64,000 nucleotides of DNA from NCBI GenBank assembly GCA_963745035.1, contig CAVUVW010000011.1, positions 96,001 through 160,000 on the forward strand. Direction: 5' to 3'. The notes under the pieces were generated by a model, which saw only the letters and a list, made by a program, of their open reading frames with translations, searched no databases and was not told the DNA's origin. This document shows positions 36,656 through 62,683 of the stretch, in pieces (position 1 is the stretch's first letter; each line of letters opens with the position of its first letter). The stretch is from an uncultured delta proteobacterium. Lineage in GTDB: Bacteria > Desulfobacterota > Binatia > UBA9968. A program made the position numbers and the translations under genes.

Positions 36656-36701
36656 GCATTGACCAGGAGAGCGCTGGTATCACAGGAAAGGAGGAAATGC
36701 C

Positions 36702-37276: not shown

Positions 37277-37351
37277 CAGCGCCTTGTTGCCCGACACCTA
37301 TGTCTCGCCGCTTCGCGCTCAGCACGGCGCGGCAAAACGCGAACGTTACGC
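37271..37351 (+). other. integron attC site
   Basis: R'' GCCTAAC ... GCGGCAAAACGCGAAC GTTACGC R'; R'' is the exact complement of the upstream GTTAGGC. Confidence 0.8.
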
Positions 37352-37507
37352 GACGTGAGGAGCATGTGATGCGACTTCCGAAGCAGGTCGTGCGTATCGT
37401 GAACGCGGTCACCAAACTTGCCCTTCTCGTAGGCATCCCACGGCCTCCATACACGGCGGGAAAACGCGCTCATCGTCGAAACCGTCGGGCCGAGCGTTAG
37501 CCATCAG

Positions 37508-37575
37508 GATTGAACTGAATTCTCCATCAACGTAATCTCGCGTGGCATCACATTGAAGCGTCGTTCAGTTCAATC
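37508..37575 (+). repeat. composite site R4 (full)
   Basis: GATTGAACTGA ATTCTCCA TCAACGTAATC TCGCGTGGCATCACATTGA AGCGTCGT TCAGTTCAATC. Confidence 0.95.
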
Positions 37576-37731
37576 TCAGGCTAAATTTGATCTTGCCATT
37601 TGATGAATACTGTCGAAGGCATCGCCGCGCGGAACGTCTGATATTCAGTCAGCGTGCTTCTCAGTTCGATGTCCGCTCGCCCTCTCATAAACGGCTTGCT
37701 TGATCGCCGCAGGTAGTCAGGGGGCCACCCA

Positions 37732-38543: not shown

Positions 38544-38651
38544 CTCGTAATCTCCAGGGTTATGAATACGCGCCGATCCGTCTCTCGAAAGATCGTCATC
38601 GCTTCGGGCACAACGGCGCTTTTCGACTCAACGATGGGTCCGAAACCCGTC

Positions 38652-38798
38652 TGTGCTGGTTTGTGCCAGAACCAGAGCAGAACAAACACCTCCCATTGTC
38701 TAACACCCAGGAGGTGAACATTAAAATAGTTGGATTTTTTCGTTGATGTTCCGCTCTGGTTTGGCCCCGACTTGGCTCTTAATCAGCGGGTCCGGGGT
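38652..38798 (+). other. att-like remnant: TGTGCYRG direct repeat plus tRNA-Lys(CTT) fragment
   Basis: TGTGCTGG/TGTGCCAG at 38652-38669; GGCTCTTAATCAGCGGGTCCGGGGT at 38774-38798. Confidence 0.6.
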
Positions 38799-38812
38799 GT
38801 TCTGGATGCTAG

Positions 38813-38880
38813 GATTGAATTGAATTCTCCACCAACGCAATCTCGCGCGGCATCACATTGAAGCGTCGTTCAGTTCAATC
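38813..38880 (+). repeat. composite site R5 (full)
   Basis: TAG GATTGAATTGA ATTCTCCA CCAACGCAATC ... TTGA AGCGTCGT TCAGTTCAATC CTA. Confidence 0.95.
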
Positions 38881-38960
38881 CTACGGGTCCGCGAGCACTT
38901 CTTATTTGACAAATCCCTTCGTTCGGCGTGATAAATAACGCTCGAAACTCTGGGTGTGCA

Positions 38961-39251
38961 ATGAAGAAAGCTCGTCTGTCATCAATCCTGATTGCGGTAC
39001 TGATGCTCGCTGTTGCCGTCATGGCCGTCATCACGGTTTGCGATGGAGCGAGAGAATCGTGTCCGCTTTTTCCCGGCCAGCCAGAGATTGCCCATTGGAA
39101 TATCCCCGATCCGACCAGGGCTACTGGATTGAAGGAAATCGATAAGTACAGGGATGTCGCACAGCAAATTCAGCAGCGTGTGCACTTGCTTTGTGCGTTC
39201 CCGATAGAAAAGCTGGGCCACTTGGCACCAGAACAGCGTGCAACCTCATAA
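38961..39251 (+). pseudogene. chimera: ABC SBP signal peptide fused to an ArsC/LMW-PTP C-terminal fragment
   Basis: MKKARLSSILIAVLMLAVAVMA + VITVCDGARESCPLFPGQPEIAHWNIPDP. Confidence 0.75.
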
Positions 39252-39626
39252 CCGGGCTGCGAGTGCTGTTAATGGACCAGCGCCTTTGCTCATGCAGCAC
39301 GGGGGCTTTGAAAGCTCTTGTATCGCTACCGAGTCAAATAGCCGGTCCAGAAACAGCGGACATTGTTGCGGTGCTCTTCAGAATGTCTGGCGGCAGAAGC
39401 CTGTAATGCTCCGATAGGCGAAGCGCATGTTTTGGCAAATTCAAACGGTAACCCTGAAGTTCGAAACAAATGCCAAACAACTAAAGGCCAAACTCGCCTC
39501 CCTGTCGCCTCTCCCGCAAAGTCACGGGAAGGCGACAGGAAAGGGTTGAAAGGCTAGGACGTTTGGAACAGTCCGCACGTTTTTCTTTTTCTGCAAACGG
39601 CGCAAAATTCGGGTAGCAAATAAGCC

Positions 39627-42600: not shown

Positions 42601-42869
42601 GACTCGATCCACAATTGCCCCAGGAAATGGAGCGGCTCGACATGCGCATTCGCTACCGCGGACATTCGCTCGATTTGCGGCTAACCCGCGATACCCTGAC
42701 AGTGCGCGGCCGCGAGCGCGGTGTCGCTGCGATCAAGCTGGGAATCAAAGACGAGGTATACGACTTTCAATGCGGCAGCACGCGCGTCTTCAAACTCACC
42801 CGCGAACAGGCTGAAAGCAATGCATCAGATAGGACGATCACCGCCAAGGGCCGAAGAGCCCGAAGCTAA
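39627..42869 (+). CDS. HAD (beta-phosphoglucomutase-like) plus GH65 trehalose/maltose phosphorylase-family fusion
   Basis: FDLDGVLT, GKPAPD, LGNGYFATRG, GHIFWDE, GPDEFH, KQADV, HGSTLS. Confidence 0.92.
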   Translation: MTATAPIITLSPRDYDAVLFDLDGVLTKTATVHAAAWKKLFDGYLKQRAQDTGGPFVAFDIDADYLRYVDGKPRYDGVVSFLHSRGIDLPLGSAGDAPGTGTVHALGKLKDRYFTESLEEQGVETYEPTISLVRTLRAQEIKTAVVSSSNNCAAVLQAAGIAHLFDTRVDGREIARLALKGKPAPDAFLEAARRLAVEPSRVVVVEDAIAGVAAGRAGRFCCVIGVDRGGHSKALREAGANVVVTSLAQVRISPEPASAWTLVYEGYEPARERIREALCALGNGYFATRGAATWARADEIHYPGTYLACGYNRMRTDIAGRIVENEDLVNLPNWLPLEFRIGEEDWFDPATVTIRLYDQRLDLRRGMLLRTIRFEDRQGRQTTLKERRLVSMSDMHVAALELSLSAENWSAKVTVRASIDGRIVNSGAQLYLKFNNKHLELLERQVLDSDGVYMLVRTSQSHIYVAQAARTQAFVDGKIREVPRRVIEEPEYIGQEMVIDVRQGETLALEKIASFYTSRDQAISECGLAARKAIGRAGRFDAVMAEHVLSWKHLWRRFDVHIQPAEPGFKLNVLMLLRLNMFHLLQAVSPNSIGLDIGVPARGWTGEAYEGHIFWDELFIFPFLNYRMPEITRSLLLYRYRRLGEARAAARMAGLRGAMFPWQSGSDGQEETQELNFNPRSQRWVPDNSYLQRHVGSAIAYNAWQYYQVTHDVEFMQAHGAELILEIARFWSSIASFNEESGRYEISGVMGPDEFHEGYPGSSSPGLNNNAFTNLMAAWVLCRALDVLELLPDIRRAELSARLGLSPDEIVRWGEVSRKMVVPFHGDGIISQFTGYENLAELNWADYRARYGNIQRLDLILEAENDSANRYKLSKQADVLMLFYLFSAQELGELFRRLGYPFDPEMIHRNVAYYDARSSHGSTLSRVVHAWVLARSDRPRSMTYFAEALQSDVSDIQQGTTAEGVHLGAMAGSVDLVQRVSTGIEITGDVLRLDPQLPQEMERLDMRIRYRGHSLDLRLTRDTLTVRGRERGVAAIKLGIKDEVYDFQCGSTRVFKLTREQAESNASDRTITAKGRRARS

Positions 42870-43078
42870 ACCGTCGAGAGTCCTTGATGAACTTCGTGTG
42901 CTTCGCGATGAGATCCTATTAATGAATACAGGACGGAAAAATCTAATTGAAGTCAGGGTAAGCTGGTCGGGAGCGGACTGGCGGAAGAAGTTTGCTCTCG
43001 GCCTGCGAATCAGGAAGTCGCGGGATTTGGCGGCTTTGTGATCCCCATGGTGTCGCTCGCCGTGTCGATTGCTCGTGC

Positions 43079-43231
43079 TTGTCCGCCTTTTGTCCGTGTA
43101 CCAGAAACAACAAGCCCCAAGAACTGCCGTTGTAAGCAGCGCTCGGGGCTTGACTTTGTTGGGCTTTGACCGCTGCTTTAGGTTCTAGTCACGATCGATT
43201 TTCGAATGGCATTCAAGTGGTGACCGGGTCG
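43079..43231 (+). other. att-like remnant: TTGTCCG direct repeat plus degenerate tRNA-Ala(GGC) fragment
   Basis: TTGTCCG x2; CAAGCCCC..GGGGCTTG hairpin; GAATGGCATTCAAG at 43204-43217. Confidence 0.5.
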
Positions 43232-43307
43232 GCCTAGCACGATCGAGCGGATAAAATCGTTATAGAGATTCTTGTAGCTCGCATCGTTGAATCCAGCATC
43301 GCGCCAG

Positions 43308-43337
43308 GATTGAACTGATTTCTCCATCAATTCAGGT
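43308..43337 (+). repeat. R6: solo core A
   Basis: GATTGAACTGA TTTCTCCA TCAATTCAGGT. Confidence 0.9.
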
Positions 43338-43719
43338 GGAGCGCAGCGCTCGGTGCTTCCCCGGCCTCTCCAGACTGGGAGTCTGGCGCGGCGATATCTA
43401 TGGTGGCATGTCTGGAGGGAGAGATTTAGTCAGCGCTTTCGAGCGTGCAACCGTCCGGCGCGACCTTGAAGATTGAAGCATCGGGAATCGTCACGTAGCC
43501 GTCCAGCCGCTTGCAGTAGTACAGCTTGACGATCGTTTCGCTTGGTATCAGTTCGCCCTCCGGGTCAATGATTTCCCGAAGACAAAAATAAGCAAGCTGA
43601 AAAGAACGTCACCGAAGAAGAAGACAAGAAGAGCGCGCTTAATTGCAGGTGCCATTGTCACACGCCGAAACACAAGCACTAGCGGGTCTTCAGCTCTAAC
43701 TGTGCTTGATAAACGCGGA

Positions 43720-43932
43720 TCATCTGTCGTGGTCGATCCACTTCTTTCCGTAACGAATGCCCCAGGCTTCGGCTTCGGCTACCGAATCGAAGGTATCTTC
43801 CGGTTTCAAAGGTTGAAAAGTTTCGCGGCCCTCCTCACCCCAGGAGACCATGACGCTCGCAATCCATTTTTGGCTGTCTGGCGTCTGATGACCTACTGAT
43901 TCAATTCTACGGCTAGCGTACAGGCGTCTCAT
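43720..43932 (-). CDS. small hypothetical protein (…EAEAWG…KKWID family)
   Basis: 70 aa, similar to 49590-49889. Confidence 0.6.
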   Translation of the reverse strand: MRRLYASRRIESVGHQTPDSQKWIASVMVSWGEEGRETFQPLKPEDTFDSVAEAEAWGIRYGKKWIDHDR

Positions 43933-44187
43933 GGTTTCCTCGGGTCAAAAAATCCTTGGCTGGATATAAGTCCTGCCGTCCCAGCCGTTTTTCTTCCTAA
44001 ATTCCTGTAGGTACTGCTCTACCAAAAACTGCGCTTCCTGCTCCGAAATAATCCCATGCATCCGCGCAGACGCAATAGTTTTCCCCCAAATACGCGCTTC
44101 GAGTTCCGTCCGATTCACATGGCCTCCGAGTTTGAAAATCCAAAACGTCTACCATGTTCCATTCGGAAAGCCAACCGACAAACGTTC

Positions 44188-44502
44188 TCATGCTATCAGC
44201 GTATTGCTCGGGTCATCCGGCAAGTCAAGTTCGCCGACCTCACCTATCGGCTTGCCGATGTTCTTCTGAAGCACGGTATAAATTGTCCGGCAAACACTGG
44301 AGTCCCGGCACAACAGCCGGCCCATGTACGTCTCATCTTCAATTTGAGTTGTCAGGTAACAAATCGTGATCGGATTGACCCGAGAGAGGGCGACATTTGT
44401 CAGCGTGGCAGAATCATGTGGTACTTTTTTTTCGTGTGATCCCGACAGTGAGAGCCAATTCGGCGGCCAAGCGCTTATCCCAGGGTGTTCTCGTAGTTTC
44501 AT
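44188..44502 (-). CDS. hypothetical protein
   Basis: 104 aa ATG-start ORF with globular composition. Confidence 0.6.
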   Translation of the reverse strand: MKLREHPGISAWPPNWLSLSGSHEKKVPHDSATLTNVALSRVNPITICYLTTQIEDETYMGRLLCRDSSVCRTIYTVLQKNIGKPIGEVGELDLPDDPSNTLIA

Positions 44503-44629
44503 GGCGCGCCGAATAAACAGAAATCACGCGTGGGTGTCAAGAGACCGCGGAAATTGTCAGAAAGCCGACAATAGGTAGCTGAAACGATTTGGCGGGAACC
44601 GGAGAGTTGTTGAGTGACTATCGCGAGAG

Positions 44630-44798
44630 TGTGGCCAAACATAGCGTCGGCCTCCATGCCGGTGGCATCGGCCATAATGTTTGCATAAACAGCCAAACCA
44701 GACATCGCGGTTAATTCCACTATTTCGGGCTGACCGAGGCCATGCGAGCGCACGCTTTCATAGTCTGCTTCAGATAAGCTCAGCACGCACATCAACAC
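44630..44798 (-). pseudogene. carboxymuconolactone decarboxylase/AhpD-like C-terminal fragment
   Basis: EADYESVRSHGL..EIVELTAMSGLAVYANIMADATG. Confidence 0.6.
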
Positions 44799-45173
44799 GC
44801 ACCCCCGGGCTTGATTTGCTTGATTCGCCTGCGATAGAAGGCGCAGTTAGACCGCTTGCAGCGGTATCTGGAAAGGGGTTCCGCAGCAGTAACCACTTTG
44901 CAAGAGTGAGGAGGGTTCCGTCCGATGCAACACACCCCGAAGCTGAAGGAAAACCGACTTCAACGCTATTCCACAGAACGTCTCGTCATGGAACCGCATA
45001 GAGACAAACAGTTGATTCCAACTTGGTTGAAAACTTTCACATTCTTGGGAGCCGCCGGCGCCGCTTCTCTGATCGTGGCTGCGTCGCTTTTCACGCTTTC
45101 ACAACAGGATTTTCCACTGCTCCATGGATTCTTAAGTTGGTAACTCACCGCCGCCGCGGATCGTAACCAGGGA

Positions 45174-46175
45174 ATGCAGGCGCGTGCACATTTGTTCGCC
45201 CGGGGAAAACCTATGGATACGAAAACGGGAATGCTCATCCTGCTGATCGTCGGCCAATTGCTTGCTACTGACGTGTGGAATGTTCATTCGGCCGAAGAAG
45301 TCGTTGGACAATACTTTTTTCAATTCGGCATTGGTGAGGTTACTGGTGAGTTCTCAAAGGCAGAGCGGCGCTATACAATTTCGGGGAGGTATGCGGTCGG
45401 TCACGACTTCAACACTGAGCCACCGTTTAATCCCGCCAAACGGAAGCTGGAGGCCTCCTTCGACTGGGTCGCTGAGGGGCGATATAATCCTGCCACCAAC
45501 GCCACCAGCGAGAAATTGGATCTATTCAATACGAACACTCGCGCGTCTGCCGGGTCTCTTACATCAACAATGGTGTGCGACCGAGATCCATGGCTGGAGG
45601 CATCCGTCGGCCCGTGCCAATTTGTCGTTACCACTGCCAGTGGTAGCCCACCCGGGACATTCGTTTTAGATATCAGTCCAGTGGCCCCAAGCGTTCCGTT
45701 TTCGTCGGCGCTGACCACAACCGAACGTTGGCGGTTGAACCGTCAGTACGACATCTTCCTCGCGGCGCGCCAAAAACTCGAACCTTTACTGACGCCCACG
45801 TATGAATCGACCGCACCCAGTATCGTCGCGCCGGCTCAGAATGGCTACATGATTCACAGGAAGTCGAAATTTATTATCCAACCCGCTCCAAACTTCAGCG
45901 GCACCGAAATCCTCGTGGAGTTTACGCCGCCCGACGCACCCGCCGGCCAAGCTCCCGAGAAAGTTGTTTGGCAAATGTCAACAAGCATTCTTAGTCTGGG
46001 TGCCGATATTCCGTACGCGATCTTCGGAACACGGGAGGGGACCTGGGCAATGCGTGCCCGCATAAACGTGCCGACACCCGGCGCCTTTACCCGGGAAGTC
46101 CGATTTCAGTACCTTATGCAAAGTCCATTCGTGAACCTCCCGTCAGAGAGATCGGTTGAGCTGCCGGGTCGGTGA
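45174..46175 (+). CDS. hypothetical secreted protein
   Basis: 333 aa ORF with hydrophobic leader; no family recognised. Confidence 0.65.
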   Translation: MQARAHLFARGKPMDTKTGMLILLIVGQLLATDVWNVHSAEEVVGQYFFQFGIGEVTGEFSKAERRYTISGRYAVGHDFNTEPPFNPAKRKLEASFDWVAEGRYNPATNATSEKLDLFNTNTRASAGSLTSTMVCDRDPWLEASVGPCQFVVTTASGSPPGTFVLDISPVAPSVPFSSALTTTERWRLNRQYDIFLAARQKLEPLLTPTYESTAPSIVAPAQNGYMIHRKSKFIIQPAPNFSGTEILVEFTPPDAPAGQAPEKVVWQMSTSILSLGADIPYAIFGTREGTWAMRARINVPTPGAFTREVRFQYLMQSPFVNLPSERSVELPGR

Positions 46176-46221
46176 GAAACTGATCGCCAAAAAGCGGCGT
46201 CGCGCCTTGCGTTATCCTTTT

Positions 46222-46251
46222 AACTGAATTGAATTCTCCGCCGGTACACTA
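46222..46251 (+). repeat. R7: degenerate solo core A
   Basis: AACTGAATTGA ATTCTCCG CCGGTACACTA. Confidence 0.55.
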
Positions 46252-46368
46252 GCGTTCTCCAGCCAAAGCGATTTGACTGATGGACCCGTCACAGGAGAAG
46301 TCGACCGGCGTTTACTACGACAGCTCACTTAACAGGTGGTGTCGATACTACGCTCAAAGGACACATCG

Positions 46369-46730
46369 ATGGAGAAGAGCGTCTGGGCGAGTGGCCAAGC
46401 GTATGAGCCCTACGTAGGTCGTTGGAGCCGACGGGCGGCTCGCGAGTTCGTCGGGTGGCTTGCGGTTCCGCCTGCTGCTCGGTGGCTTGATGTCGGATGC
46501 GGTACGGGAGCGCTGACTGAAACGATTCTGCGTTGCGCAAGTCCCTCCGAAGTTATGGTATCGCCCCTTCGGAGGGCTATCTTGGCCTCGCGCGCGAGCA
46601 GGTTCGAGATCCCAGAGTTCGCTTCGACGTCGGCGATGCTCGCCACCTTTTAGTTGAACCGGCGCGATGCGATGCTGTAGTGTCCGCACTCGTGCTCAAC
46701 TTCATTCCGGATCTTCCTGCGGGACTGGCG
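46369..46730 (+). pseudogene. class I SAM methyltransferase, frameshifted and truncated
   Basis: AYEPYVGRWSR, WLDVGCGTG, DAVVSALVLNFIPD. Confidence 0.8.
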
Positions 46731-46849
46731 GGCAGTCCGCGGCCGGGCATCCCAGTAGGGAGCAACGGTGAAGCATATTGCGGCCCAGCCAATCATTGCT
46801 GCGGACGCGGCAAATACGTTGCGCTGCTGAGTGACTCGGTTATTCCTGA

Positions 46850-46913
46850 GATTGAACTGATTTCTCCATCAAGCCAATCTTGCCAGATTAATGGTGCGTC
46901 GTTCAGTTCAATC
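46850..46913 (+). repeat. composite site R8 (full, short linker)
   Basis: GATTGAACTGA TTTCTCCA TCAAGCCAATC ... TGCGTCGT TCAGTTCAATC CTA. Confidence 0.92.
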
Positions 46914-47026
46914 CTACGTCCAAATTAGCCTTTTCTCCCTCGATGAATCGGTTTTCCTTCTGCCGTAAATAACACTTTTCTCAGCTTCCGTGTCCGTGAT
47001 AAGTCTTGTCACGAACGAGGCGCGAA

Positions 47027-48027
47027 ATGAAAAAACGAGTTGGTCATCAATCCTGGTTGCAGCCATGCTGCTCGCTGTTGCAGTCATAGCCGAGGCGCAG
47101 CAGCAGGCGAAGAAGGTACCTCGGATAGGGTATCTAGCATCGAGAGACCCGGCTACGGAGTCCACGCGGTCCGAGCCAGTTCGACTGGCTCTGCGGGAGC
47201 TTGGCTACATAGAAGGAAAGAACGTCGTCATCGACTACCGATATGCGGAGGGGAAGCGTGATCGCTACCCTGAGCTTCTGGCCGAACTGGTCCGTCTCAA
47301 GGTTGATGTCATCGTGGCAGCAGGAGGCGAGCCGACGGTCCGGGCGGCCATTAAAGCGACGAAGACGATTCCCATCGTAATGACAGGTGGTGGGGCCGAT
47401 CCTGTCGAGGCAGGCTATATCAAAAGCCTTGCCCGTCCCGGCGGCAACGTCACCGGCATTACGAACCTTGGCTTAGAGCTAGGCGGAAAACGGCTGGAGT
47501 TGCTCAAAGAAGCTCTTCCCAAGGTGGCCCGTGTCGCGGTTCTCTACGATCCGGCGGCAGGTTCAGACTTCCTACGCGAGGTGAATGAGGATCTCCCAAT
47601 CGCGGCACATGGGTTGGGTTTGGATATTCGGTCTTGGGAGGCACGAGCTGTGGGCGATTTCGAAAGGATATTCGCTGCGCTAAACAAGGAGCGCCCCGAT
47701 GGGCTCTATGTGACCGGGAGCCTGCTCTTTCATACTAACCGAAAACGGATTGTCGAGTTTGCGTTACAGAGCCGGTTACCGTCTGTATACAGTAGAAGAG
47801 AATATGTAGATGAAGGGGGGCTCATATACTATGGGGCGGACCTCGCGGACAGCTACCGGCGTGTCGCATATTACGTGGACAAAATTCTCAAAGGTACGAA
47901 GCCTGCGGACTTGCCTGTCGAACAACCTGCAAAGTTCGAGCTGGCGATCAATCTTAAAACCGCAAAGCAGATCGGTCTGACGATTCCACAAAAAGTGTTG
48001 TCGCGGGCGGATAAGGTGATCAAGTAA
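47027..48027 (+). CDS. ABC transporter substrate-binding protein (ABC_sub_bind, Trp/Tyr-type)
   Basis: LRELGYIEGKN, SLARPGGNVTG, GTKPADLPVEQP, RADKVIK*; start probably frameshifted in an A-run. Confidence 0.92.
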
Positions 48028-48044
48028 CCACCCGGCGACGCTAG

Positions 48045-48104
48045 GATTGAACTGAATTCTCCATCTAATCAGTCTCGCCTTAGATCAACCTGAAGCGTCG
48101 TTCA
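48045..48104 (+). repeat. composite site R9 (last arm truncated)
   Basis: GATTGAACTGA ATTCTCCA TCTAATCAGTC ... GATCAACCTGA AGCGTCGT TCA. Confidence 0.9.
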
Positions 48105-48227
48105 TGTTGGAGCCGCATTCGAAAAAGCGAAGATAGAGCGTACCCAAGGGCTTCTCGTAAATGCTCGATTCCGATCGGGTTAAAGCCCTCCAATAAAGCA
48201 TTTTCTTCCTTCCCAAATTTTTTACAC

Positions 48228-48257
48228 GATCAAACTGAAGCGTCGTTTAGTTGAATT
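48228..48257 (+). repeat. R10: solo core B
   Basis: GATCAAACTGA AGCGTCGT TTAGTTGAATT. Confidence 0.85.
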
Positions 48258-48646
48258 CTAGGCGCGCCAACCCTGCCGCCAAGCTGAAAGCGCCTCGCAA
48301 AAAACTGTTTCACCTCCGCTGTTTCTCAGAGAAACGGAGGTGACGGTGACCTCTGTCCGTACAAGAAAATTCATCGATCCGCCGTTGGAGGCCCACCGCC
48401 TCGGGCTACTCATTAAAGGGATGTGAGTAAATTTCCTACCGACTCTAACTCTGAGTGTCTGCTTATCCAAACATTGTGAAAGGTTTGTTCACTAAATTTC
48501 ACGCGGTTGTGCTGGCATATGGATTGCCAGACTAAAAAGGATGTGAATTCACCTACTCAGCCCTACGAAGCGCGACTTGTGTGTAGGGTCAGTCGTTTTT
48601 AACCGGGATGGCCTTAAAAAGAGAAATAAAACAAATAAAGTAGTTT

Positions 48647-49066
48647 ATGAAAAAAATCTTCTCGGCGCTCCTATTTTTACAACTCTTGGTGTTGGCATTG
48701 ATGGCGCCGAATCTGTTTGCAGATGAAAGACGGGAATTCATTTCGAAAACAATGAATCCGGAGGTTCAAAAGCTTTTGGAAAACTGCGGCAGAGAAATAA
48801 TTGGCGAGGAGCCATTTTCAAGCAAGAATAATAATATCATGAACTATATGATCGGCTTTTATGATACCGATCACGGTTTGCTTGTTACGCTTCAAGCATT
48901 ACAGCAACGATTAAATGAGCATGGACGCGCGATCCCGGATGTTTATTCTAGCGAACTTGTGGCGATTGTATTCGTTGATCGATCGCTCTTGTGGTATAAA
49001 TCTCAAACCGCTAAGAGCACCTTAAAAGCAAAAATGGCGCGGTTAATGCAAAACCGATCTATTTAA
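48647..49066 (+). CDS. hypothetical exported protein, AT-rich
   Basis: 139 aa with signal peptide MKKIFSALLFL. Confidence 0.65.
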   Translation: MKKIFSALLFLQLLVLALMAPNLFADERREFISKTMNPEVQKLLENCGREIIGEEPFSSKNNNIMNYMIGFYDTDHGLLVTLQALQQRLNEHGRAIPDVYSSELVAIVFVDRSLLWYKSQTAKSTLKAKMARLMQNRSI

Positions 49067-49246
49067 GCAGGCACCCTGCTTTTTATTTTTCTTTGAGTCC
49101 CGCATCGTAACATACCTCGAACTCCTCTCAACTTAGACGCCCTCCGTGCCGTTATCATCGAGCGCCGAACACTTTGCGAGTGACCCCTCACCCGTTTGGG
49201 TAGATCTTAGGAACCAGTTTATTAAACAACCATGCGACGATGCCAG

Positions 49247-49294
49247 GATTGAACTGAATTCTCCATCAACGCAATCTCGCCTGAAACACATTGA
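49247..49294 (+). repeat. R11: core A plus linker, truncated at spacer B
   Basis: GATTGAACTGA ATTCTCCA TCAACGCAATC TCGCCTGAAACACATTGA. Confidence 0.9.
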
Positions 49295-49589
49295 CGTTCG
49301 CATGTGTCCTCAGTGTAAGTCGCCGCACGTGCCGAAAGACCAGAGGCGGGAGCGCTAAGATGCCATTTCGCGTTATGCGGCGATGGGCCTTATACATGCG
49401 ACATTTCCCGTTCTCGCGAATGGAAAACTTAGATGTTTAGAACGCGCAGCGAGAGAGAGGAGGCAGAAAATGTGTGGACTAGAAATCTTTACTGATTAGA
49501 GTGCGGCTATCCCATGGATGGTTGGTGGTTACTCAGTACGTTTGGTCGGGACTTGGAATATCTGCCAAACAGGCATCAGTCGCCCGTGG

Positions 49590-49889
49590 TTACTTGATCA
49601 CTCTATCCGAAGCGCCCATATCCAAAGTGTCCTCTCTCCCCGCCCGCGCCAGCACATTCGGCGGAATCGTCACCCGCGATGAACGTTCGGCGTCCGGGAC
49701 GAGTGACAGATCCGGTTTTCCATCATCGATCCATTTCTTTGCGAATCTAAGACCGTCCATTTCCGCTTCTTCTCGTAGACGAAACGTTCGATTAACAGTT
49801 AACTTACTAGTTATCCCTTTACCATCTTCGCTCCAAATTATTGTAAGGCATAGCTTCCACTGACGCGGGGCCAGTCGCGAGGAGGACAC
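49590..49889 (-). CDS. small KKWIDDGKP-type protein fused to an ABC SBP C-terminal tail
   Basis: EEAEMDGLRFAKKWIDDGKP then VTIPPNVLARA...DRVIK*. Confidence 0.55.
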   Translation of the reverse strand: MSSSRLAPRQWKLCLTIIWSEDGKGITSKLTVNRTFRLREEAEMDGLRFAKKWIDDGKPDLSLVPDAERSSRVTIPPNVLARAGREDTLDMGASDRVIK

Positions 49890-49959
49890 GAGGATCCTAT
49901 GACCTTTGTGAGTTGCGTTGATGAATTTTTCTCCTAGATGTTGGTGGGCGAGTTCCTAC

Positions 49960-50352
49960 TTAGGAAGCCAGCAAATGGGTCCGCAGGACATCCCGTAGCA
50001 GTGGCAATTGTAACGGCTTGTACAAGATCTCTGCAGCGCCGGCATTAAGCGCGCGGTCGGCACGTTCTTCAACGTTGAAGTCGGTGGTCCACCCGCTATT
50101 TAAGACCACCGGGATATTGCGAGTGGACATATTCCTCTTTAATTGCACCGTTACTTCATCTCCATTTAACCCGGGCAAACGTATGTCCATCATGATCAGA
50201 TCAGGACGAAGGCTGAAAGCCTTGTCGAGGCCCTCTGGACCCGTAGCCGCTTCGACAACTTCGTGGCCCAAACCATTGAAAAACCCTCGAAGCGATTCTC
50301 GAAACTTTTCGTTGCCATCGACGATCAATATTTTTTTAGCCGTGTTGTGCAT
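49960..50352 (-). CDS. single-domain response regulator receiver
   Basis: KILIVDG, PDLIMMDIRLPGLNG, KP. Confidence 0.88.
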   Translation of the reverse strand: MHNTAKKILIVDGNEKFRESLRGFFNGLGHEVVEAATGPEGLDKAFSLRPDLIMMDIRLPGLNGDEVTVQLKRNMSTRNIPVVLNSGWTTDFNVEERADRALNAGAAEILYKPLQLPLLRDVLRTHLLAS

Positions 50353-50525
50353 GGAAGAAGCCTAGCAGCACAAGATATGCCAGCGCTTCAAATGTCAGTA
50401 TTTTGGTATTTTGTCGCCTTTAGCGCCTATGCAGCGATGTTTGGCGCTGCGACTTGCTTGGAGAATGACTGTCACTTTGCCAAGATTCGCGGGCCGTGCC
50501 TGCTCAGCCTTGGCGTTAGCGCCAG

Positions 50526-50594
50526 GATTGAACTGCATTCTCCATCAACGCAATCTCGCGTGGCATCAACATTGAAGCGTCGTTCAGTTCAATC
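50526..50594 (+). repeat. composite site R12 (full)
   Basis: GATTGAACTGC ATTCTCCA TCAACGCAATC ... ATTGA AGCGTCGT TCAGTTCAATC. Confidence 0.95.
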
Positions 50595-51202
50595 TCAGGC
50601 TAAATCTGGTCCTCCCAGTCGACGAATATCTGTTGCCTTCGTATCGTAAATCCGAGTTTCGTAGCGATTCGAATTCAGCCAGATCTTCGAGGCTCATCGC
50701 CCAGGATAAACAAAGACTCTGCCGGGAAATCTCCCCTTGGGCTAAAACGTGGGATCAATACATCATCGCGCCGGATTATGATTATAATTTACTCGGTGGG
50801 TGCGCTGGGTGTAGAGTTCGTATATTGGTTGAATCTCTCTTTTAAGGGGAAACTTTATGGATAAAAATGCGCCTGGCCTTGATGTCGGAACTAAGTGCGG
50901 ACATTCGTGTACAAGACTAGATGGCCCCATTAAGAATGACTTTGGTTGTTGTATTTGTATGGGCGAGACGCAGTTGTGTACATCGTGCGAAAAGAGAAGA
51001 CTCTCGGAAGATCCCGTTGGGGAGAAGGACGAAAGTGTCAACACACCTGGAAGCCGAAAAGATTAAGGTTTAGGAACCGGCGTTGGATCGACGGCCTCGG
51101 CTAGAATAGCGCGAATCAACCGGATCTTTTGCCCGACAACTTTTTGAGATCGTAAGTTACGGTCTCGTGGCGCGGGCGGGTAAAGTGATGAAGTGACGCC
51201 AA

Positions 51203-51232
51203 GATTGAACTGTATTCTCCATCAATTCAATT
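51203..51232 (+). repeat. R13: solo core A
   Basis: GATTGAACTGT ATTCTCCA TCAATTCAATT. Confidence 0.9.
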
Positions 51233-51321
51233 TCACGTCGATGACCCTGGAGTGCTACGGTCCGTGCTGCCCGGCCCTTTTCCTGCGCGGGCGGACAGAG
51301 TGATAAAATAAGGAGCGCATT

Positions 51322-51984
51322 ATGATCGGTGCCAAGGCTCTGTTAGAAGGGATTCGGCAAGATTTGCAGCCCGTCACGGAACGGCTTCTGGGGCATCCTT
51401 ACGTGAAGGCTCTGGAGGAAGGGCAGATTGAGCGGGAGAAGCTCCGTCTTTTTGCCGGCGAGCAGTACAGCATCATAGCGAGTGATCTCAAAAGCGTCGC
51501 TTATTTGCTTAGCCGCTTCGGTAGCGCTCCGAGCCGTGATTTCTTTCTCGGAATCCTGCAGGGTGAAAGAGCTGCCTGGGATGGCTTGCTAACGTTCGTC
51601 AATGCCCTCGGCCTAAGCGAAGCTCAACTGAGCAAGCACGAGCCAGCGGCTGGCGCTCATGCCTACACCTGCTACATGGCGTGGCTTGCGCTCTATGCCT
51701 CTGACGCCGAGATTGCTGCTGCCTACCTGGTCAATTTTCCAGCGTGGGGTCAGAACTGTGGCCGCCTGAGCCGGATTCTGAAAGAGCGTTTCGGTATGGG
51801 CGAGAAGGAAGTCGCTTTTTTTGATCTCTTCGCCTCTCCTCCAACTACATTTGAAGCCGACGCTCTGAAAGTTATTCAGCAGGGACTCGATCGAGGCATC
51901 GAGCCGAGCCTGATCCAACGGGCGGCTCGGTTACTCCAGGCCTACGAGCTCATGTATTGGGATACCCTCTACGGGGCGTCTTAG
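51322..51984 (+). CDS. TenA/THI-4 family protein
   Basis: HPYVKAL..G, AYTCYMAWLA, YELMYWD. Confidence 0.85.
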   Translation: MIGAKALLEGIRQDLQPVTERLLGHPYVKALEEGQIEREKLRLFAGEQYSIIASDLKSVAYLLSRFGSAPSRDFFLGILQGERAAWDGLLTFVNALGLSEAQLSKHEPAAGAHAYTCYMAWLALYASDAEIAAAYLVNFPAWGQNCGRLSRILKERFGMGEKEVAFFDLFASPPTTFEADALKVIQQGLDRGIEPSLIQRAARLLQAYELMYWDTLYGAS

Positions 51985-52045
51985 CCGTGCTGGCAGGGCG
52001 GATAAAGTGATCGAGTGAGCGAAGAAAACCAAGCGGCAATGCTAG

Positions 52046-52113
52046 GATTGAACTGAATTCTCCATCAAACCAATCTTACGTCTCATCCAACTGAAGCGTC
52101 GTTCAGTTCAATC
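52046..52113 (+). repeat. composite site R14 (full)
   Basis: TAG GATTGAACTGA ATTCTCCA TCAAACCAATC TTACGTCTCATCCAACTGA AGCGTCGT TCAGTTCAATC CTA. Confidence 0.95.
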
Positions 52114-52264
52114 CTACATGGCTGTTTTTGTGATGGTCTGGCCGAATAGGCCGCCGATTCGTTAGGCAGATAAGCTGCCGTGCCGGTCGGCTTTTTAGCG
52201 AAAAACTCTAACGTTGACAATCCAGGTGAGCTGATGGATATTCCACGCAATTTGAACTTTTATT

Positions 52265-52340
52265 GTCCAAGCTGTCGCCGAGATAAGCCGACCGGCATTT
52301 GTCGCCGCCTACGGCGGCGCGGCTCACTTAATAGTTAGAC
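52265..52340 (+). other. degenerate attC ending in GTTAGAC
   Basis: GCCGCCTACGGCGGC hairpin, GGCTCACTT, R' GTTAGAC at 52334-52340. Confidence 0.6.
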
Positions 52341-52374
52341 CTCATTAACCATCGACACGTTTAGGGAGGCGACT

Positions 52375-53170
52375 ATGGAACCCAACCTGCATACGGATGC
52401 CAATAAGTACCAGGCCGGGATGGGAGGCTGGAGTAAAACTCTTGCTCCTCTATTCATCGAATTTATAGGAGGTATCAAAGAAGGGGATCGGGTGTTAGAT
52501 GTAGGCTGTGGTACGGGTTCACTCACAAACACCATTGCTGATACAACAAAAGCCGCAACAGTTATCGGCATCGACCCTTCAGTAGGCTACTTAGAATATG
52601 CCCGTACACACAATACACGTTCGCACGTTTCCTTTGAAATCGGGGATGCTCAGAAACTTTCCTATGACAATGGCTCTTTCGACTGCTGCGTATCTTCGTT
52701 GATGATTCAATTTGTCTCGGCTGCGGACGCGGCAGCAAGAGAAATGAGGCGCGTCACAAAGAACGCGCGGAACTGTTGCAACTTGTGTATGGGACAACAG
52801 TGGAGGCATGGAGTTAGCCGAAAGATTCTGGGATGCGGCCATTGCAATTGACCCAGAAGCCAAACGAACTGGGAATAGCCGTTATGGATCGCCAAGCGCG
52901 CTTTCAGATTTGTGGAGCGCCGCTGGTTTTGCGAATGTTGAAACAGGACCTCTGGTTATTCCTATGGAGTTTCCTTCCTTCGAGGATTTGTGGCGCATTC
53001 AGTCAGATGCGCAGGGACCGCCTAAACTTTATATCAGCAGTCTGTCTGAGGATCGCCGACAGTTATTGAAGGAGCGACTACGCGCGGACATTCTTGGTAA
53101 TCGCCCTCATGGATCGATTAGCCTTCGTGCAAAGGCTTGGGCAGTGCGTGGGATAGTGCCGGCAGGGTAG
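52375..53170 (+). CDS. class I SAM methyltransferase, integron cassette gene (frameshift ~52770)
   Basis: RVLDVGCGTG, IGIDPS, AKAWAVRG; ORFs 52375-52851 and 52808-53170. Confidence 0.85.
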
Positions 53171-53294
53171 ATTTTCGACGGACTAGTTTGCGCAAATTGG
53201 AGTAGCTGTGATCCATCCATCCTAGTAAACGAAGCGAACGGATAATCTTCTTATCGCTTGGGCGTGGCCGCGTGTCGGTTTCGCATTGTGTGGT

Positions 53295-53351
53295 GTCTAA
53301 CTTTCCGCTTCAAGCCGCCGCATGACGCGCGGGCTGAGCGCGGCGTTAGCG
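53295..53351 (+). other. integron attC site
   Basis: R'' GTCTAAC (complement of upstream GTTAGAC) ... GCTGAGCGCGGC GTTAGCG. Confidence 0.7.
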
Positions 53352-53355
53352 CCAG

Positions 53356-53423
53356 GATTGAACTGAATTCTCCATCAAACCAATCTTACGTCTCATCCAA
53401 CACAAGCGTCGTTCAGTTCAATA
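53356..53423 (+). repeat. composite site R15 (full; island right end)
   Basis: GATTGAACTGA ATTCTCCA TCAAACCAATC TTACGTCTCATCCAACACA AGCGTCGT TCAGTTCAATA. Confidence 0.95.
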
Positions 53424-53501
53424 CCGGAAAAAAATTCTCCTTAAGGCCCACACATTTTCAGGAAATGAGAAAGGGGACATTCTGAAATTAGCCTGTGGGT
53501 C

Positions 53502-54491
53502 TCATCTTTTGTATAGCTGCTTGATAAACCCCGACGCTTCCAGCTCCTGGACCAAGCTCATATCGACGAAACTTTTTGGGTCGGCCGTTGCCGCTTTGGG
53601 TGTGCGTGGGGCGATGTCGTCGAGGAGCGTCTTCACTCCTTCGGCGTTTGGGTAAGGAACCTCTGGGAATGCGCCGTTGTAGGCGCGATAAGCGCGCTCC
53701 AATCCTTCCGGGTCGTTGGTCTTGAGATTCTTGCCGATCAGCGCTTTGGTCTCTTCCTTGTTGGTCTTGATGAAATGGAGCGCTTCGGTGAAGGCGCGGA
53801 CGACTTTGGCAACGAACGGGCGCCGTTCCTTGACGGTCTTCTCGCGCGTGACGACGGCGTTAACGTGGTAGGGAATCTTGAGAGTTCCGATGTCGATCAG
53901 GTCCCTGAAGCCCATCTTCTCGGCTTCGCGCACCAGCGGCTCGGCGAGCAAGGTGAACTGCGTGATGTTGCGCGTGAGCGCCGCGAGACGTTGCGGGTTT
54001 TCCCCGGTGGCAATGATCTTGGTGTCCTTTTCCGGATCGATACCGAAGCGGCGTAGGGCGAGTCGCAAAGTCATGTCCGAAGTGGTGCCGAGGCGATTGA
54101 CGCCGCCGGTCTTGCCCTTGAGCTGTTCGATGCTCGTGATGTCCGCCAGCGATACGATGTGATCGATGAACAGCGGCAAATTGGTCGACACCATGACCGT
54201 GTCCGCGCCGGCCAAACGAGAGGTCACCAACGTCGCCGACGGCGCGATGATGAAATCTACCTCGCCGGTGAGCAGCGCTTGGATGACGATGGTGCTGGCG
54301 CTGATGGCGATCACTTCGGCTTGCAGGCCATTCTTCTTCAGAAAGCCCTTCTGATCGGCGACCCAAATCGGTGTGTTCGACGGCGAGCTTCCCGCCCACG
54401 CGATGCGCATCCGCTCCTGCGCCGAGATTGGTCTTGCGGAAACAAGTGTCAGCAGGGCAATGACAATCAACCAGAACGATGATTTGAGCAT
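53502..54491 (-). CDS. NMT1/THI5 ABC substrate-binding protein
   Basis: WVADQKGFLKKNGL, LKGKTGGVNRLG. Confidence 0.9.
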   Translation of the reverse strand: MLKSSFWLIVIALLTLVSARPISAQERMRIAWAGSSPSNTPIWVADQKGFLKKNGLQAEVIAISASTIVIQALLTGEVDFIIAPSATLVTSRLAGADTVMVSTNLPLFIDHIVSLADITSIEQLKGKTGGVNRLGTTSDMTLRLALRRFGIDPEKDTKIIATGENPQRLAALTRNITQFTLLAEPLVREAEKMGFRDLIDIGTLKIPYHVNAVVTREKTVKERRPFVAKVVRAFTEALHFIKTNKEETKALIGKNLKTNDPEGLERAYRAYNGAFPEVPYPNAEGVKTLLDDIAPRTPKAATADPKSFVDMSLVQELEASGFIKQLYKR

Positions 54492-58961: not shown

Positions 58962-60149
58962 ATGACCGTGGAAAAATCTCCGCCGCTTTGGACGCCGGCA
59001 TTTGTCCTGCTGTGCGGCGCGCAGTTTTTTGGCTCGGCGCAGCACGCCCTGCTGCAACCCACTTTTCCGCTTTACATCACCGCGCTCGGAGGAACACCGT
59101 TTCAGGTCGGCTTGGTGCTTGCCTGCTTCGCGGTGACAAGCGTCGTCTTTCGTCCGCTTATCGGCGGCTGGGCCGACCAATGGTCCGAGGCCGGAGTGTC
59201 GGTTTGCGGCCTGTCACTGCTGTCGCTCGCGGTGCTGATCTGTTTCATCCCGCATCCCGAAGCGACCATGTTCGCCAATGCGCTGCGCGGCATCGGCTGG
59301 GCGGCGATGAGCGCCGCCGGTTATTCCTTGCTCGCGCTGAGCGCGCCGCCGCACCGCCGCGGCGAGGCATCAGGTTACTATAGCGGCGTGCAGGCGAGCG
59401 GCACAATCCTGCTTTCCCGCTGTCGCGCTGTGGCTCATCGACGCGCCTTTCGGCGGTTTCGATGTGGTTTTCACCGCAGCCATTGCTTTCGCTGCGCTCG
59501 GCGCCGCCATTAGCGCGCAACTCTTCCGGCGCGGCGCCTAAGAAAATTCACCAGAGCCGAATCGTCGCGGAGACGGGGCCTTGGTGGCAGGAAATTTTGA
59601 ATGTCCTGGATCGCGAGATCATTCTCGCCTCGGTGCTTTCGTTCGGCTCCCATGTGACTTTCCCTGCGGTGGCGAGTTTTTTGGTGCTCTATGCGCGCGA
59701 GCTCGGCATCGACAACATCGGTTGGTTCTACGTCGTAAGCGGCATCACCAGCATCCTCTGCTCGTCCGCTGTTGGGCAAGGTTTCCGACAGGATCGGCCG
59801 GCGCCGCGCCTTGCTCGCGTGTTTTGTTCTCCAAACTATCGCACTACTGACGCTCGCCTATGCTTCCGAGCTCATCGCTTTGATGATTTCAGGCGCGCTC
59901 TATATGGTGGGATTGGCCATGAGCAGCTCGACCACCTTGGCCATCGCCATGGAGCAGGCCAAACCCGAACGACGAGGCGAGCCATGGCGACGTTCTCCAT
60001 CGCCTTGCCTCTAAGCAACGGCGTCGGCGCGCTTGATCTGCGGCAGTTTGGTGCAATCGATCGGCTTTTTTTGGATGTATCTTGTCGCCGCGGGCATTGC
60101 CGCCGGCGGTTTGCTGGTTACGATGGCCAACCGTGCGCGCCTGAAGTAG
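58962..60149 (+). CDS. MFS transporter (multiple frameshifts)
   Basis: LWTPAFVLL, RPLIGGWAD, RRGEASGYY. Confidence 0.8.
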
Positions 60150-60303
60150 AGGAGAAAGAATTGCGAGGGCTAATCACCCAATGGCTTAGAGAAAGTTTGT
60201 CCGCTTCGCCAGCACTTTTCTCGATCGTGCTCGTGCGACGTGATCGTGGTCGAGTCCTGACACGAACACGGTCACGAACACGGTGGCCTTCAAGACCGCG
60301 CCC

Positions 60304-61490
60304 ATGACCACCGAGCGCTCCGACACCCTCTGGAACAAAACTTTCCTTCTGCTCTGTAGCGCGCAGTTTCTGGGCTATGCGCAGCATGCCATGCTCTCCC
60401 CGGTTCTGCCTCTCTACGTCACCCAGCTCGGCGGCTCGCCCTTTGTCGTCGGCATGGTGCTCGCGTGCTTCGCAGCGTCAAGCGTCATTGTCCGTCCTTT
60501 AGTCGGTCATTGGTGCGATCGCTGGAGCGAAGCGAAGGTCATGATCTCCGGACTGGTTTTTCAGGGCGCGAGCATTCTTATCTGCTTTATTCCCTTCGTC
60601 AGCATGGCGATGCTCGCCAATGGCCTGCGTGGCATTGGATGGGGCGGGCTCAACACCGGCGGCTACTCGCTGCTCGCCCATATCGCGCCCGAGTCACGCC
60701 GCGGCGAGGCCTCCGGTCTTTACAGCGGCGTGCAAAGCTCGTCGTCGATCTTGTTTCCCGCCTTCGCTCTCTGGTTGCTGCACGCTTCGTTCGGCGGCTT
60801 CGGAGTGGTGTTCGTCGCGACCGCGCTATTTTCTCTCGCTGGCGCAGTGCTCGGCGCGGTCATGACCCTCCAGATGCCGAAGATCGCGCGCTCGAGCGCC
60901 GCTCTCGATCCGGCGCGCCGCTGGTGGCGCGAGATTTTCCGTTTCATCGAGCCGGAGATCTTACTGCCGTCGGTGATGCTCGCCTGGCTGAATATTTCCC
61001 TCCCTTCCATCACCAACTTCAGCGTGCTCTATGCGCAAGAGCTCGGCATCATCGACTTCGGACCGTTTTTTATTGTCATCGGCTTCACGAGCTTGCTCGG
61101 CCGGCCCATGCTCGGGCGGCTTTCCGACAAAATCGGCCGCGAATCTATCGGTCGGCGTCGGTTTCGGTCTGCAACTCGTAAGCCTGCTCCTGATCGCCTT
61201 CGTGTCCAATCTCGTCGGCATGATCGTGTGCGGCACGCTCTACATGCTCGGCAACGCGATCGGCAGCTCGACGACCCTGGCGCTGGCAGTCGAGCGCGCC
61301 GCATCCGCAGCGCCGCGGCAAGCAAATGGCGAGTTTCTCCGTCGCCTATCCGTTGAGCTACGGCATCGGTTCATTGATCGTCGGCAGCGCGGTGGAAGCG
61401 GCGGGTTATGCGGGCATGTTCTACATCATGGCCGCGATTCAGGCATTGGGCTTGATCTTCGTCGTAATCAAAGCGGACAGACTGCGCTGA
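60304..61490 (+). CDS. MFS transporter (frameshifted)
   Basis: LWNKTFLLL, RRGEASG, GRLSDKIGR. Confidence 0.8.
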
Positions 61491-61501
61491 GAAAACCAGC
61501 G

Positions 61502-62683
61502 ATGACGAGCGATCGCCAAGATTCGATCTGGACCCGCGGCTTTTCGCTCCTCTGCCTCGCCGAATTTCTCGGCTACGCGCAGCACTTCATTCTCCAGCCC
61601 ACCTTTCCGCTCTATATCACTCAACTGGGCGGCTCACCGTTTCACGTTGGTTTGGTAATCGCATCCTTCGGCGTTGCCAGCGTGATATCCCGCCCTATCC
61701 TCGGCTATTGGGCGGATCGGTGGAGCGTCACCGGGATGATGATCCTGGGCTTGTGTTTGCAGACACTGAGCATTTCGCTTTGCTTCCTGCCATTCGTCGC
61801 CGCGCTGATGCTCGCCAATGGCTTGCGCGGCATCGGCTGGTCGGGAATGAATACCGGCGGCTACACCTTGCTCGCGACGATTGCGCCCGCAGCGCGCCGC
61901 GGCGAAGCGTCGGGATACTACGGAGGCGTGCAATCCAGCGCGACGATTCTGTTTCCGGCCGTAGCGCTTTGGATCATCGATGCTCCGTTCGGCGGCTTCG
62001 ATGCGACATTTCTCTTCGCCATGTCGCTGGTGCTGCTCGGCGCCGGCGCGGCGATCGCCTTATCGCGCGCCGTTCCCAAGGCGCCTCGTCAATCCGTCAC
62101 GGCATCCTCCGAACCGTGGTGGCGCGAAATTTTGAACGTATTCGATCGCCATATCTTGCTCGCCGCAACCTTGATGTTCACCTTGCATGTCTCGCTTCCC
62201 TGTTTCTCGAGCTTCGTCGTGCTCTATGCCCGCGAGTTGGCGATCGATCACTTCGGCTGGTACTTCGTTGCAACCGGAGTCACCAGCATGCTGGCGCGCC
62301 CGCTTCTTGGTCGGGTCTCGGATAAGATCGGCGCCGGCCGCTCGCTCATCGTCGCCTACGTACTCGAATCCGCCGCGCTGCTGATGATGCCGTTCGCCGG
62401 CAATCTTGCCGGTGTCATGTTGGGCGGAGCGCTTTACTTCATGGGATCGGCGATCGGCGGAGCGAGAATTCTCGCGCTGGCGATGGAACAAGCGCCAGCC
62501 GAAAGGCGCGGCCGCGCCATGGCGAGTTTCTCCGTGGCGTTTCCTTTGAGCAACGGCACCGGAGCGATGCTGAGCGGCCTGGTCGTCGATCTTGCCGGCT
62601 ATAACTGGATGTACATCACCGCGGCTCTACCCTGCGCCGTTGGACTTCTCCTCACTGCGAAATACTGGAAGAGCTTGAGATAG
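61502..62683 (+). CDS. MFS transporter
   Basis: IWTRGFSLL, RRGEASGYY, GRVSDKIG. Confidence 0.9.
   Translation: MTSDRQDSIWTRGFSLLCLAEFLGYAQHFILQPTFPLYITQLGGSPFHVGLVIASFGVASVISRPILGYWADRWSVTGMMILGLCLQTLSISLCFLPFVAALMLANGLRGIGWSGMNTGGYTLLATIAPAARRGEASGYYGGVQSSATILFPAVALWIIDAPFGGFDATFLFAMSLVLLGAGAAIALSRAVPKAPRQSVTASSEPWWREILNVFDRHILLAATLMFTLHVSLPCFSSFVVLYARELAIDHFGWYFVATGVTSMLARPLLGRVSDKIGAGRSLIVAYVLESAALLMMPFAGNLAGVMLGGALYFMGSAIGGARILALAMEQAPAERRGRAMASFSVAFPLSNGTGAMLSGLVVDLAGYNWMYITAALPCAVGLLLTAKYWKSLR

Follow-up and report, generated by a model that had tools for sequence, protein, structure and literature searches.

A palindromic repeat that punctuates a gene array in a Binatia genome: a candidate atypical attC-type site, with one copy split around a tyrosine recombinase gene

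The window analyzed here, a stretch of 64,000 nt from a Binatia genome (7.43 Mb in 28 contigs), holds between positions 32553 and 53429 a series of 14 copies or half copies of a palindromic element, termed R1, whose full copies measure 74–85 bp. Repeat, motif and profile scans placed every one of them on the + strand: 7 are full copies, 2 more have an altered right end, and 5 are halves (3 left, 2 right). In the list below, R″ and R′ stand for the outer arms of the element, L″ and L′ for its inner arms, and bubbles A and B for the left and right spacers between them. The list also includes a recombinase pseudogene that lies between two R1 halves and a site that resembles a canonical attC site.

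32553–32630, + strand: full R1 copy, start of the array (nhmmer 60.4 bits; R1 model 68.8 bits)
33876–33910, + strand: left half of a split R1 copy, R″–bubble A–start of L″ (motif scan, 5/23 mismatches)
33973–34875, + strand: Xer-like tyrosine recombinase pseudogene between the R1 halves (PF00589, 3.8e-30, C-terminal frame)
34868–34903, + strand: right half of the split R1 copy, L′–bubble B–R′, overlapping the recombinase stop codon (nhmmer 14.4 bits)
37271–37351, + strand: canonical attC-like site within the R1 array, GCCTAAC–5 nt–L″ (one bulged base) ... L′–6 nt–GTTACGC (assigned by anatomy)
37502–37581, + strand: full R1 copy (R1 model 94.2 bits; folded)
38807–38886, + strand: full R1 copy (R1 model 94.4 bits)
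43302–43334, + strand: lone left half (nhmmer model positions 2–33)
46844–46919, + strand: full R1 copy (R1 model 69 bits; folded)
48039–48112, + strand: R1 copy whose right end diverges just past GCGTCGTTCA (R1 model 48 bits)
48214–48262, + strand: lone right half (nhmmer model positions 31–79)
49241–49300, + strand: R1 copy with shortened bubble B and a different right end, ..ATTGACGTTCGCATG (motif/profile scan)
50520–50600, + strand: full R1 copy (R1 model 84.1 bits)
51197–51240, + strand: lone left half, with a paralogue at L025:6688 (profile scan)
52040–52119, + strand: full R1 copy, the element at 52043–52116 of the sequence-only reading (R1 model 93.8 bits)
53350–53429, + strand: full R1 copy, end of the array (R1 model 78.4 bits)

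The R1 copies lie 3′ of ORFs that are mostly on the + strand and belong to unrelated families, among them MgtC, SnoaL-like, glyoxalase-like, GH65-HAD, PF04392 binding protein, TenA and methyltransferase. The commonest gene in such a position encodes a PF04392 ABC substrate-binding protein (46990–48027 in the window), which recurs in several arrays and genomes (L025, L026, L029, L030, L033, L096, L097 and L103) and conserves both the leader that follows the site (..CCTACGTCCAAATTAGCCTTTTCTCCCTCGATGAATC..) and its 3′ end (..GGTGATCAAGTAA). One cassette consists of two neighboring small ORFs of 110 and 156 aa on the − strand (38543–38211 and 38202–37732); neither has a match in Pfam or NCBIfam, and their layout is like that of a toxin-antitoxin pair, which is common in cassette arrays. 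Several lone left halves are followed on their 3′ side by a conserved GC-rich sequence of ~110 nt that starts with GGAGCGCCGCGCTCGGTGCTTCCCCGG and contains a CCAGACT/AGTCTGG hairpin (window 43337–43410 and 43463–43578; L195:2806–2918; L196:12352–12464 and 15177–15292). It has no Rfam match and no ORF, and a related piece lies 5′ of a lone right half. A group II intron or an IS in the site center was considered and rejected, since Rfam gave no match over 30000–56000 and the sequence shared after the left halves extends for only ~110 nt. Downstream of the array and unrelated to R1, three tandem paralogous genes occupy 59268–62566 at a spacing of ~1.2–1.34 kb (repeat families D3, D8, D11 and D12). 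At least half of the sampled words of positions 45000–54000 also occur in contigs from 8 public runs spread over 4 studies, labeled as soil or rhizosphere metagenomes apart from one run without an organism label; the source sample may be among them.

The copy at 52043–52116 had been described, by a reading made from the letters alone, as two tandem lox-like cores with different, conserved 8-bp spacers. Re-reading of the window confirmed its sequence exactly, as well as the perfect 15-bp inverted repeat formed by its outer arms, TAGGATTGAACTGAA and TTCAGTTCAATCCTA; counted by hand, the arms of core A match at 10/14 positions and those of core B at 8/11. At up to 2 mismatches, the window contains the outer-arm 14-mer 16 times, compared with 0.25 expected occurrences and a shuffle maximum of 4 (n = 100). 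Aligned with one another, 21 full copies from the source genome and one relative bear out the described pattern of near-invariant outer arms and spacers beside drifting inner arms and linker: the columns that are invariant or conserved at ≥90% are TTCTCC, GCGTCGTTCAGTTCA and the outer arms. Conservation of the spacers thus stands, but their length of 8 bp does not, because the first and last spacer bases (A-T) prolong the outer stem and 7 + 7 nt is the better count. Across 59 distinct copies from several genomes these bubble arms are the best-conserved part of R1; on the minus strand one reads CGACGC(T/A/G) in 44 copies and the other (T/A)GGAGAA in 51. At the ends of the element, the right-hand outer GTT is retained in 20 of the 21 aligned copies while the left-hand AAC reads AAT in five, which fits a cleavage in the R′ side only, and the inner GTT is conserved at ≥90%.

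Folded as a single strand, R1 has a basal stem of 10–15 bp that opens into a bubble of ~7 + 7 nt, beyond which lie another stem of ~10 bp and a variable loop. Of the two strands, the minus strand is the more stable in all four copies folded, and three of these four minus-strand folds beat all 200 shuffles. In the MAFFT alignment of 21 copies, the paired cells of the whole structure amount to 73.6% on the + strand vs. 83.9% on the − strand, and those of the inner helix to 60.9% vs. 85.1%; most inner-arm mismatches, read on the + strand, are C.A and hence turn into G.T on the − strand. Among the 59 copies, G.T cells of the inner helix number 135 on the − strand vs. 35 would-be G.T cells on the + strand, a bias that two diverged arm consensus sequences could mimic in part, and wobble in the outer helix is symmetric between the strands. 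Covariation had been proposed as a check of the two-core description, and the inner arms indeed change in a compensatory way, above shuffles. Paired cells reach 81.8% (78.8 ± 0.5 shuffled), cells changed on both sides number 65 (42 ± 5.9) and the covariation score is 0.202 (0.159), none of which was attained in 500 shuffles of the 59 copies, in an alignment fitted to the R1 model and with shared ancestry among copies that inflates the test. Double changes fall in 5 of the 10 inner-helix pairs. A role of R1 in mRNA is unlikely, since it is the strand antisense to the genes that pairs better. Likewise, none of the 19 terminator-like sites in 36000–54000 is an R1 copy, the hairpin being followed by no T-run, and Rfam returned no match over 30000–56000 at E ≤ 1.

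This anatomy is close to that of the attC sites (59-base elements) of integron gene cassettes. In the passages that characterize them, attC sites have an R box with conserved AAC/GTT, an unpaired central spacer of non-conserved sequence, an L box and a variable terminal structure; their bottom strand is recombined, and the sites of one chromosomal array are highly similar (PMC5027507). R1 has the imperfect inverted repeats R″/R′ and L″/L′ with one strand that can fold into a hairpin, the AAC/GTT (bottom/top strand of R′), the unpaired bubble and the variable loop. Its full copies fall inside the attC length range of 57–141 bp, its split copies (~1030 bp) far outside. Pairing favors the bottom strand, opposite in sense to the cassette ORFs, which are mostly on +. 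Against the consensus RYYYAAC/GTTRRRY, the outer ATTGAAC and GTTCAAT fit at 6/7 positions each, and the inner candidate ACTGAAT/GTTCAGT at 5/7 and 6/7. Like the sites of sedentary chromosomal integrons, the copies of one genome are highly similar, and they stand in co-oriented arrays 3′ of promoterless-looking ORFs. An attC-like ssDNA hairpin with an unpaired internal loop had been offered as the alternative to two lox-like cores, and since R1 has attC architecture it is the better fit, by anatomy, array layout and genomic company.

There are also clear departures from attC. R1 shows no consistent extrahelical base in L″, its inner-stem arms being of equal length in 20 of the 21 copies (the copy at 50520 has a 1-nt insertion), whereas the L″ bulge is present in canonical attC sites from this genus. 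With the outer core as R box, 11 nt separate R″ from L″ (the 7 + 7-nt bubble plus a 4-bp stem extension), compared with the usual 5–6 in attC; only the inner register ACTGAAT/GTTCAGT yields a 6 + 6-nt spacer, at the cost of AAC in R″. Unlike in attC, moreover, the bubble is conserved in sequence, the strand asymmetry comes from G.T pairs, and half sites are many. Before 2005, the literature described 59-base elements in double-stranded form as two “simple sites,” each an inversely oriented pair of core sites. The left (R″–spacer–L″) and right (L′–spacer–R′) cores of the sequence-only reading re-derive this older view, but attC cores are 7 bp long and 5–6 bp apart, whereas R1 arms of 11–14 bp surround 7–8 nt.

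The source genome encodes a single integron integrase, on contig C6 (TIGR02249, 445 bits vs. a cut-off of 265), and canonical attC-like sites follow on its 3′ side (C6:34636–34695, 39460–39522 and 40614–40683). In relatives, intI is likewise followed by co-directional cassettes whose canonical attC sites read GCCTAAC–5 nt–L″ with bulge ... L′–5 nt–GTTAGGC (L089). Arrays beside intI thus use the canonical type, different from R1, and 169 kb of sequence around 7 intI loci in 5 genomes gave no significant R1 hit, which counts against R1 as a simple member of the attC class. The two kinds of site are nevertheless intermixed in R1 arrays. The attC-like site at 37271–37351 sits between the glyoxalase-like ORF on its 5′ side and an R1 copy 150 nt further downstream, and a second one, C10:17190–17249, stands in an R1 array in R1 orientation. 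Both rest on their own anatomy, because our home-made detector of canonical attC is unspecific (52 hits genome-wide vs. 75 in a reversed-sequence control); individual attC-like sites were used only if the core read G(C/T)CTAAC. The window itself is no complete integron, as it has no intI. If R1 is an attC site, its 7 full copies and variants over 21 kb make up a CALIN, for which the definition given in PMC4889954 asks for at least two attC sites without a nearby integron integrase.

Clusters of 3–5 tandem 9-bp units (GTTCAAnnC/GnnTTGAAC), which have the TTGAAC core in common with R1, form inverted pairs that bracket single genes, for example the glycine reductase component B gene at 27845–29014. 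They lie in the window at 3815–3839, 11529–11587, 27754–27851 and 29171–29340, and elsewhere in L036 (112–156, 594–640 and 910–945), L087, L090, L092 and L093, frequently near intI in relatives. They may be a second type of cassette boundary or a protein-binding array.

A profile built from 16 full copies located further R1 clusters on contigs C1, C2, C6, C10, C13, C14, C17, C19 and C26 of the source genome, each in a single orientation and many of their members half copies. We scored R1, intI and the Xer-like recombinase gene in 31 genomes of the genus and 5 further genomes. The R1 covariance model (E ≤ 0.001) matched 19 of the 31 genus members, with 45 hits in G018. A match to intI, in several cases a fragment, was present in 10 of these 19 R1-bearing genomes vs. 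5 of the 12 without R1, a tally of 15/31 that takes in the unpublished genome G005; R1 and intI thus co-occur only weakly, which also counts against the attC reading. One genome that is 99% complete (G044) has 5 R1 hits and no intI.

With moderate confidence, we read R1 as an atypical attC-type (59-base-element) site and the window array as a CALIN on which an integron integrase acts in trans. The minus strand can form a hairpin with a basal stem of 12–15 bp (R″/R′), a 7 + 7-nt bubble, an L″/L′ stem of ~10 bp and a variable loop; the outer arms of the two-core description would then be R″/R′ with AAC/GTT, its spacers the bubble, its inner arms L″/L′, and its two cores the left and right attC halves. 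A tyrosine recombinase would bind both stems of the folded strand and cut in the right-hand GTT region, and recombination between two sites would release a circle of one gene plus one site, able to re-insert at another site. The enzyme would most likely be the integrase encoded on contig C6. The two GTT in GCGTCG/TTCAG/TTCAAT (slashes after each G) are the candidate crossover triplets.

Comparisons between copies bear on where such a crossover might fall. The copies at 48039 and 49241 and two copies in L028 show divergence or a deletion directly past GCGTCG, a thin piece of evidence that hints at the inner G/TT as the crossover point. In two paralogous cassette pairs, 94.8% and 96.6% identical, similarity ends inside the site, right after TCTCCATCAA and not at GTT, which speaks against an attC site. 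Cassette-end complementarity, that is, between a right flank and the left flank of the next site, followed no consistent pattern among the sites compared. An orthologous empty locus for the window array was sought by flank synteny in G018 and G003 and none was found, the left and right flank genes being neither adjacent nor co-oriented there. Two further candidates were set aside. A solo R1 copy distinguishes C19 from C14 by an insertion/deletion of ~290 nt + R1 + 20 nt, but its ends are a 3-bp GCT microhomology and not the G/TT of an attC crossover, and this empty-site comparison is silent on both the cassette and the MITE model. Apparent excision joints in Logan contigs (e.g., 51278 to 52090, in 3 runs) were explained by paralogous loci or other strains.

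The split copy raises a different possibility. Between its halves lies the Xer-like recombinase gene of 33973–34875, a pseudogene with two frameshifts near 34160 and 34345 (three frames were read), whose NCBIfam matches are XerA/XerC/XerD-like and below cut-offs. Relatives at 80–93% identity, plus one at 45%, were found in a species-representative collection, in MAGs labeled Pyrinomonadaceae, Candidatus Binatia, “delta proteobacterium” and Candidatus Udaeobacter, though the contigs are short and mis-binning is possible. The relatives sit in the same R1 frame: a left R1 half precedes the gene also in L103, L104, L105 and L114, a right half directly follows its stop codon also in L103–L106, and in L104, L105 and L106 the gene is intact (301–307 aa). 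Since the flanks beyond the outer arms differ from locus to locus, the shared unit extends from R″ to R′. R1 could be the site of its own Xer-like tyrosine recombinase, carried in the loop of the split copy, in a cassette system that runs alongside true integrons and mingles with them; the short R1 copies would then be gene-less derivatives of the split unit that still capture neighboring genes. The pseudogene sits exactly between the two halves in the window, all five genomes with the gene also have R1 (6, 8, 1, 3 and 43 hits; three of the five have an intI match), and R1 is present in genomes without a match to intI. Within the genus, on the other hand, only G000 has the gene, as a pseudogene; no close relative turned up among the 31 genomes, where the best match has 44% identity, and the other 18 of the 19 R1-bearing genomes, G018 with its 45 R1 hits included, hold nothing above that value. 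A hairpin is also unlikely for a split copy with a loop of 950 nt, and in the split units L″/L′ complementarity is weak and its register inconstant.

The gene order of L197, from the Binatia MAG of L104 (G048:C23), is relevant here. On one strand, intI (4647–5735) is followed by a rhodanese cassette with a canonical attC, a large TPR gene, a first split unit (10806–11820), an O-methyltransferase cassette with a canonical attC (12912–12966), a second split unit (12966–13978) and more cassettes with canonical attC sites. The second unit abuts the GTTAACC core of a canonical attC, and the units start 10 nt past such a core. Lying 5 kb downstream of intI with one O-methyltransferase cassette between them, the two recombinases are 86% identical, and two such copies in one array count in favor of a self-carried recombinase. 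From this gene order the split unit is a cassette inside a real integron, and judged by sequence it would behave like a cassette made up of nothing but one giant attC-like site whose loop holds a gene; that the units act as ordinary cassettes counts against an enzyme of their own. We hold it unlikely, though a serious candidate, that R1 belongs to this recombinase, and equally doubtful the wider proposal of an undescribed cassette-shuffling system that passes between soil bacteria and enters true integrons in cassette form. Within titles and abstracts on attC, gene cassettes and Xer, none concerns a recombinase gene inside an attC site; in the relevant part of an archaeal integron preprint Xer proteins serve only as outgroups, and Xer modules are among the topics of PMC7399989.

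Other tyrosine recombinases adjoin R1 in G018 and G043, and they were rejected as cognate enzymes because they are companions of IS91-family Y2 transposases, that is, IS insertions. These elements (L096:5783–7876 and L096:13674–15767 in G018; L097:6065–8364 in G043) combine a tyrosine recombinase ORF with a Y2 transposase that has a zinc-binding domain, and lie ~78 nt from R1 copies, twice at identical spacing. Given the target preference of IS91, R1 may attract them through its GAAC/GTTC.

The model from which the analysis started, with R1 as two adjacent double-stranded cores of lox/FRT/dif type (A, outer arm–ATTCTCCA–inner arm; B, inner arm–AGCGTCGT–outer arm) that would permit A×A and B×B crossovers, we now regard as improbable. 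Its geometry is real: arm–spacer–arm lengths are ~13-8-13, and an isolated core A at L026:6603 has near-perfect inverted arms (GAGATTGAACTGA/ATTCTCCT/ACAGTTCAATCTC). Isolated A and B halves are frequent and keep both arms, A and B can stand ~950 bp apart around a gene, and the two alternate along the window array with few exceptions. The spacers are the most invariant part, as expected if partners must match in spacer identity, and the two paralogous cassette pairs differ only between the spacers or break right after spacer A. The idea that the R1 halves are separable modules therefore survives, on account of the isolated halves and of the copy split around the recombinase gene, but the inner arms do not look like conserved binding sites: they vary and co-vary, without a single consensus. 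Compensatory changes in variable inner arms speak against the model, as does the G.T bias to one strand, which a double-stranded site does not predict even if divergence of the arm consensus could mimic part of it. Segments that occupy the A...B slot are rare (~3/25 sites in the source genome), and most R1-bearing genomes lack a cognate recombinase.

Equally improbable is a reading in which R1, either a non-autonomous palindrome of REPIN or MITE type or an element with a structural or regulatory role, owes its spread or retention to something unrelated to cassette recombination, its arrays having arisen by duplication of gene plus repeat: the PF04392 paralogues with common leaders in many cassettes and the R1-containing insertion/deletion with microhomology ends would suit it, but every cluster is uniformly oriented at one-gene spacing, the genes between copies are unrelated, the hairpin lacks a trailing T-run, the strand that pairs better runs antisense to the genes, and none of the 5 Y1 transposase matches (PF01797) in the genome adjoins an R1 array. 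REP/REPIN elements are hairpin doublets of inverted units, and their RAYT is a Y1 HUH transposase. The dispersed R1 hairpins, with the gene of a DNA-breaking enzyme between inverted half elements, recall this arrangement and lend the repeat reading a likeness, but the enzyme flanked by R1 is a tyrosine recombinase, and R1 is clustered and co-oriented with single-gene spacing. Another comparison is with pdif sites, which are single 28-bp sites with a 6-bp center. As in pdif modules, genes lie between inversely oriented sites of tyrosine-recombinase type with one conserved and one variable arm, and the recombinase is not necessarily encoded nearby; unlike pdif, R1 is two sites fused into a hairpin-forming palindrome whose inner arms covary.

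In the paper texts searched, none that names Binatia also mentions integrons. If R1 is a working attC variant, large cassette arrays exist in Binatia, an uncultured soil class, and integron integrases tolerate sites that have no extrahelical bases and a large bubble conserved in sequence. The unit in which a recombinase gene occupies a split site bears on the origin of attC sites and cassettes, and also on whether cassette arrays can be driven by a recombinase that is not IntI; if so, the many attC clusters without an integrase would be accounted for.
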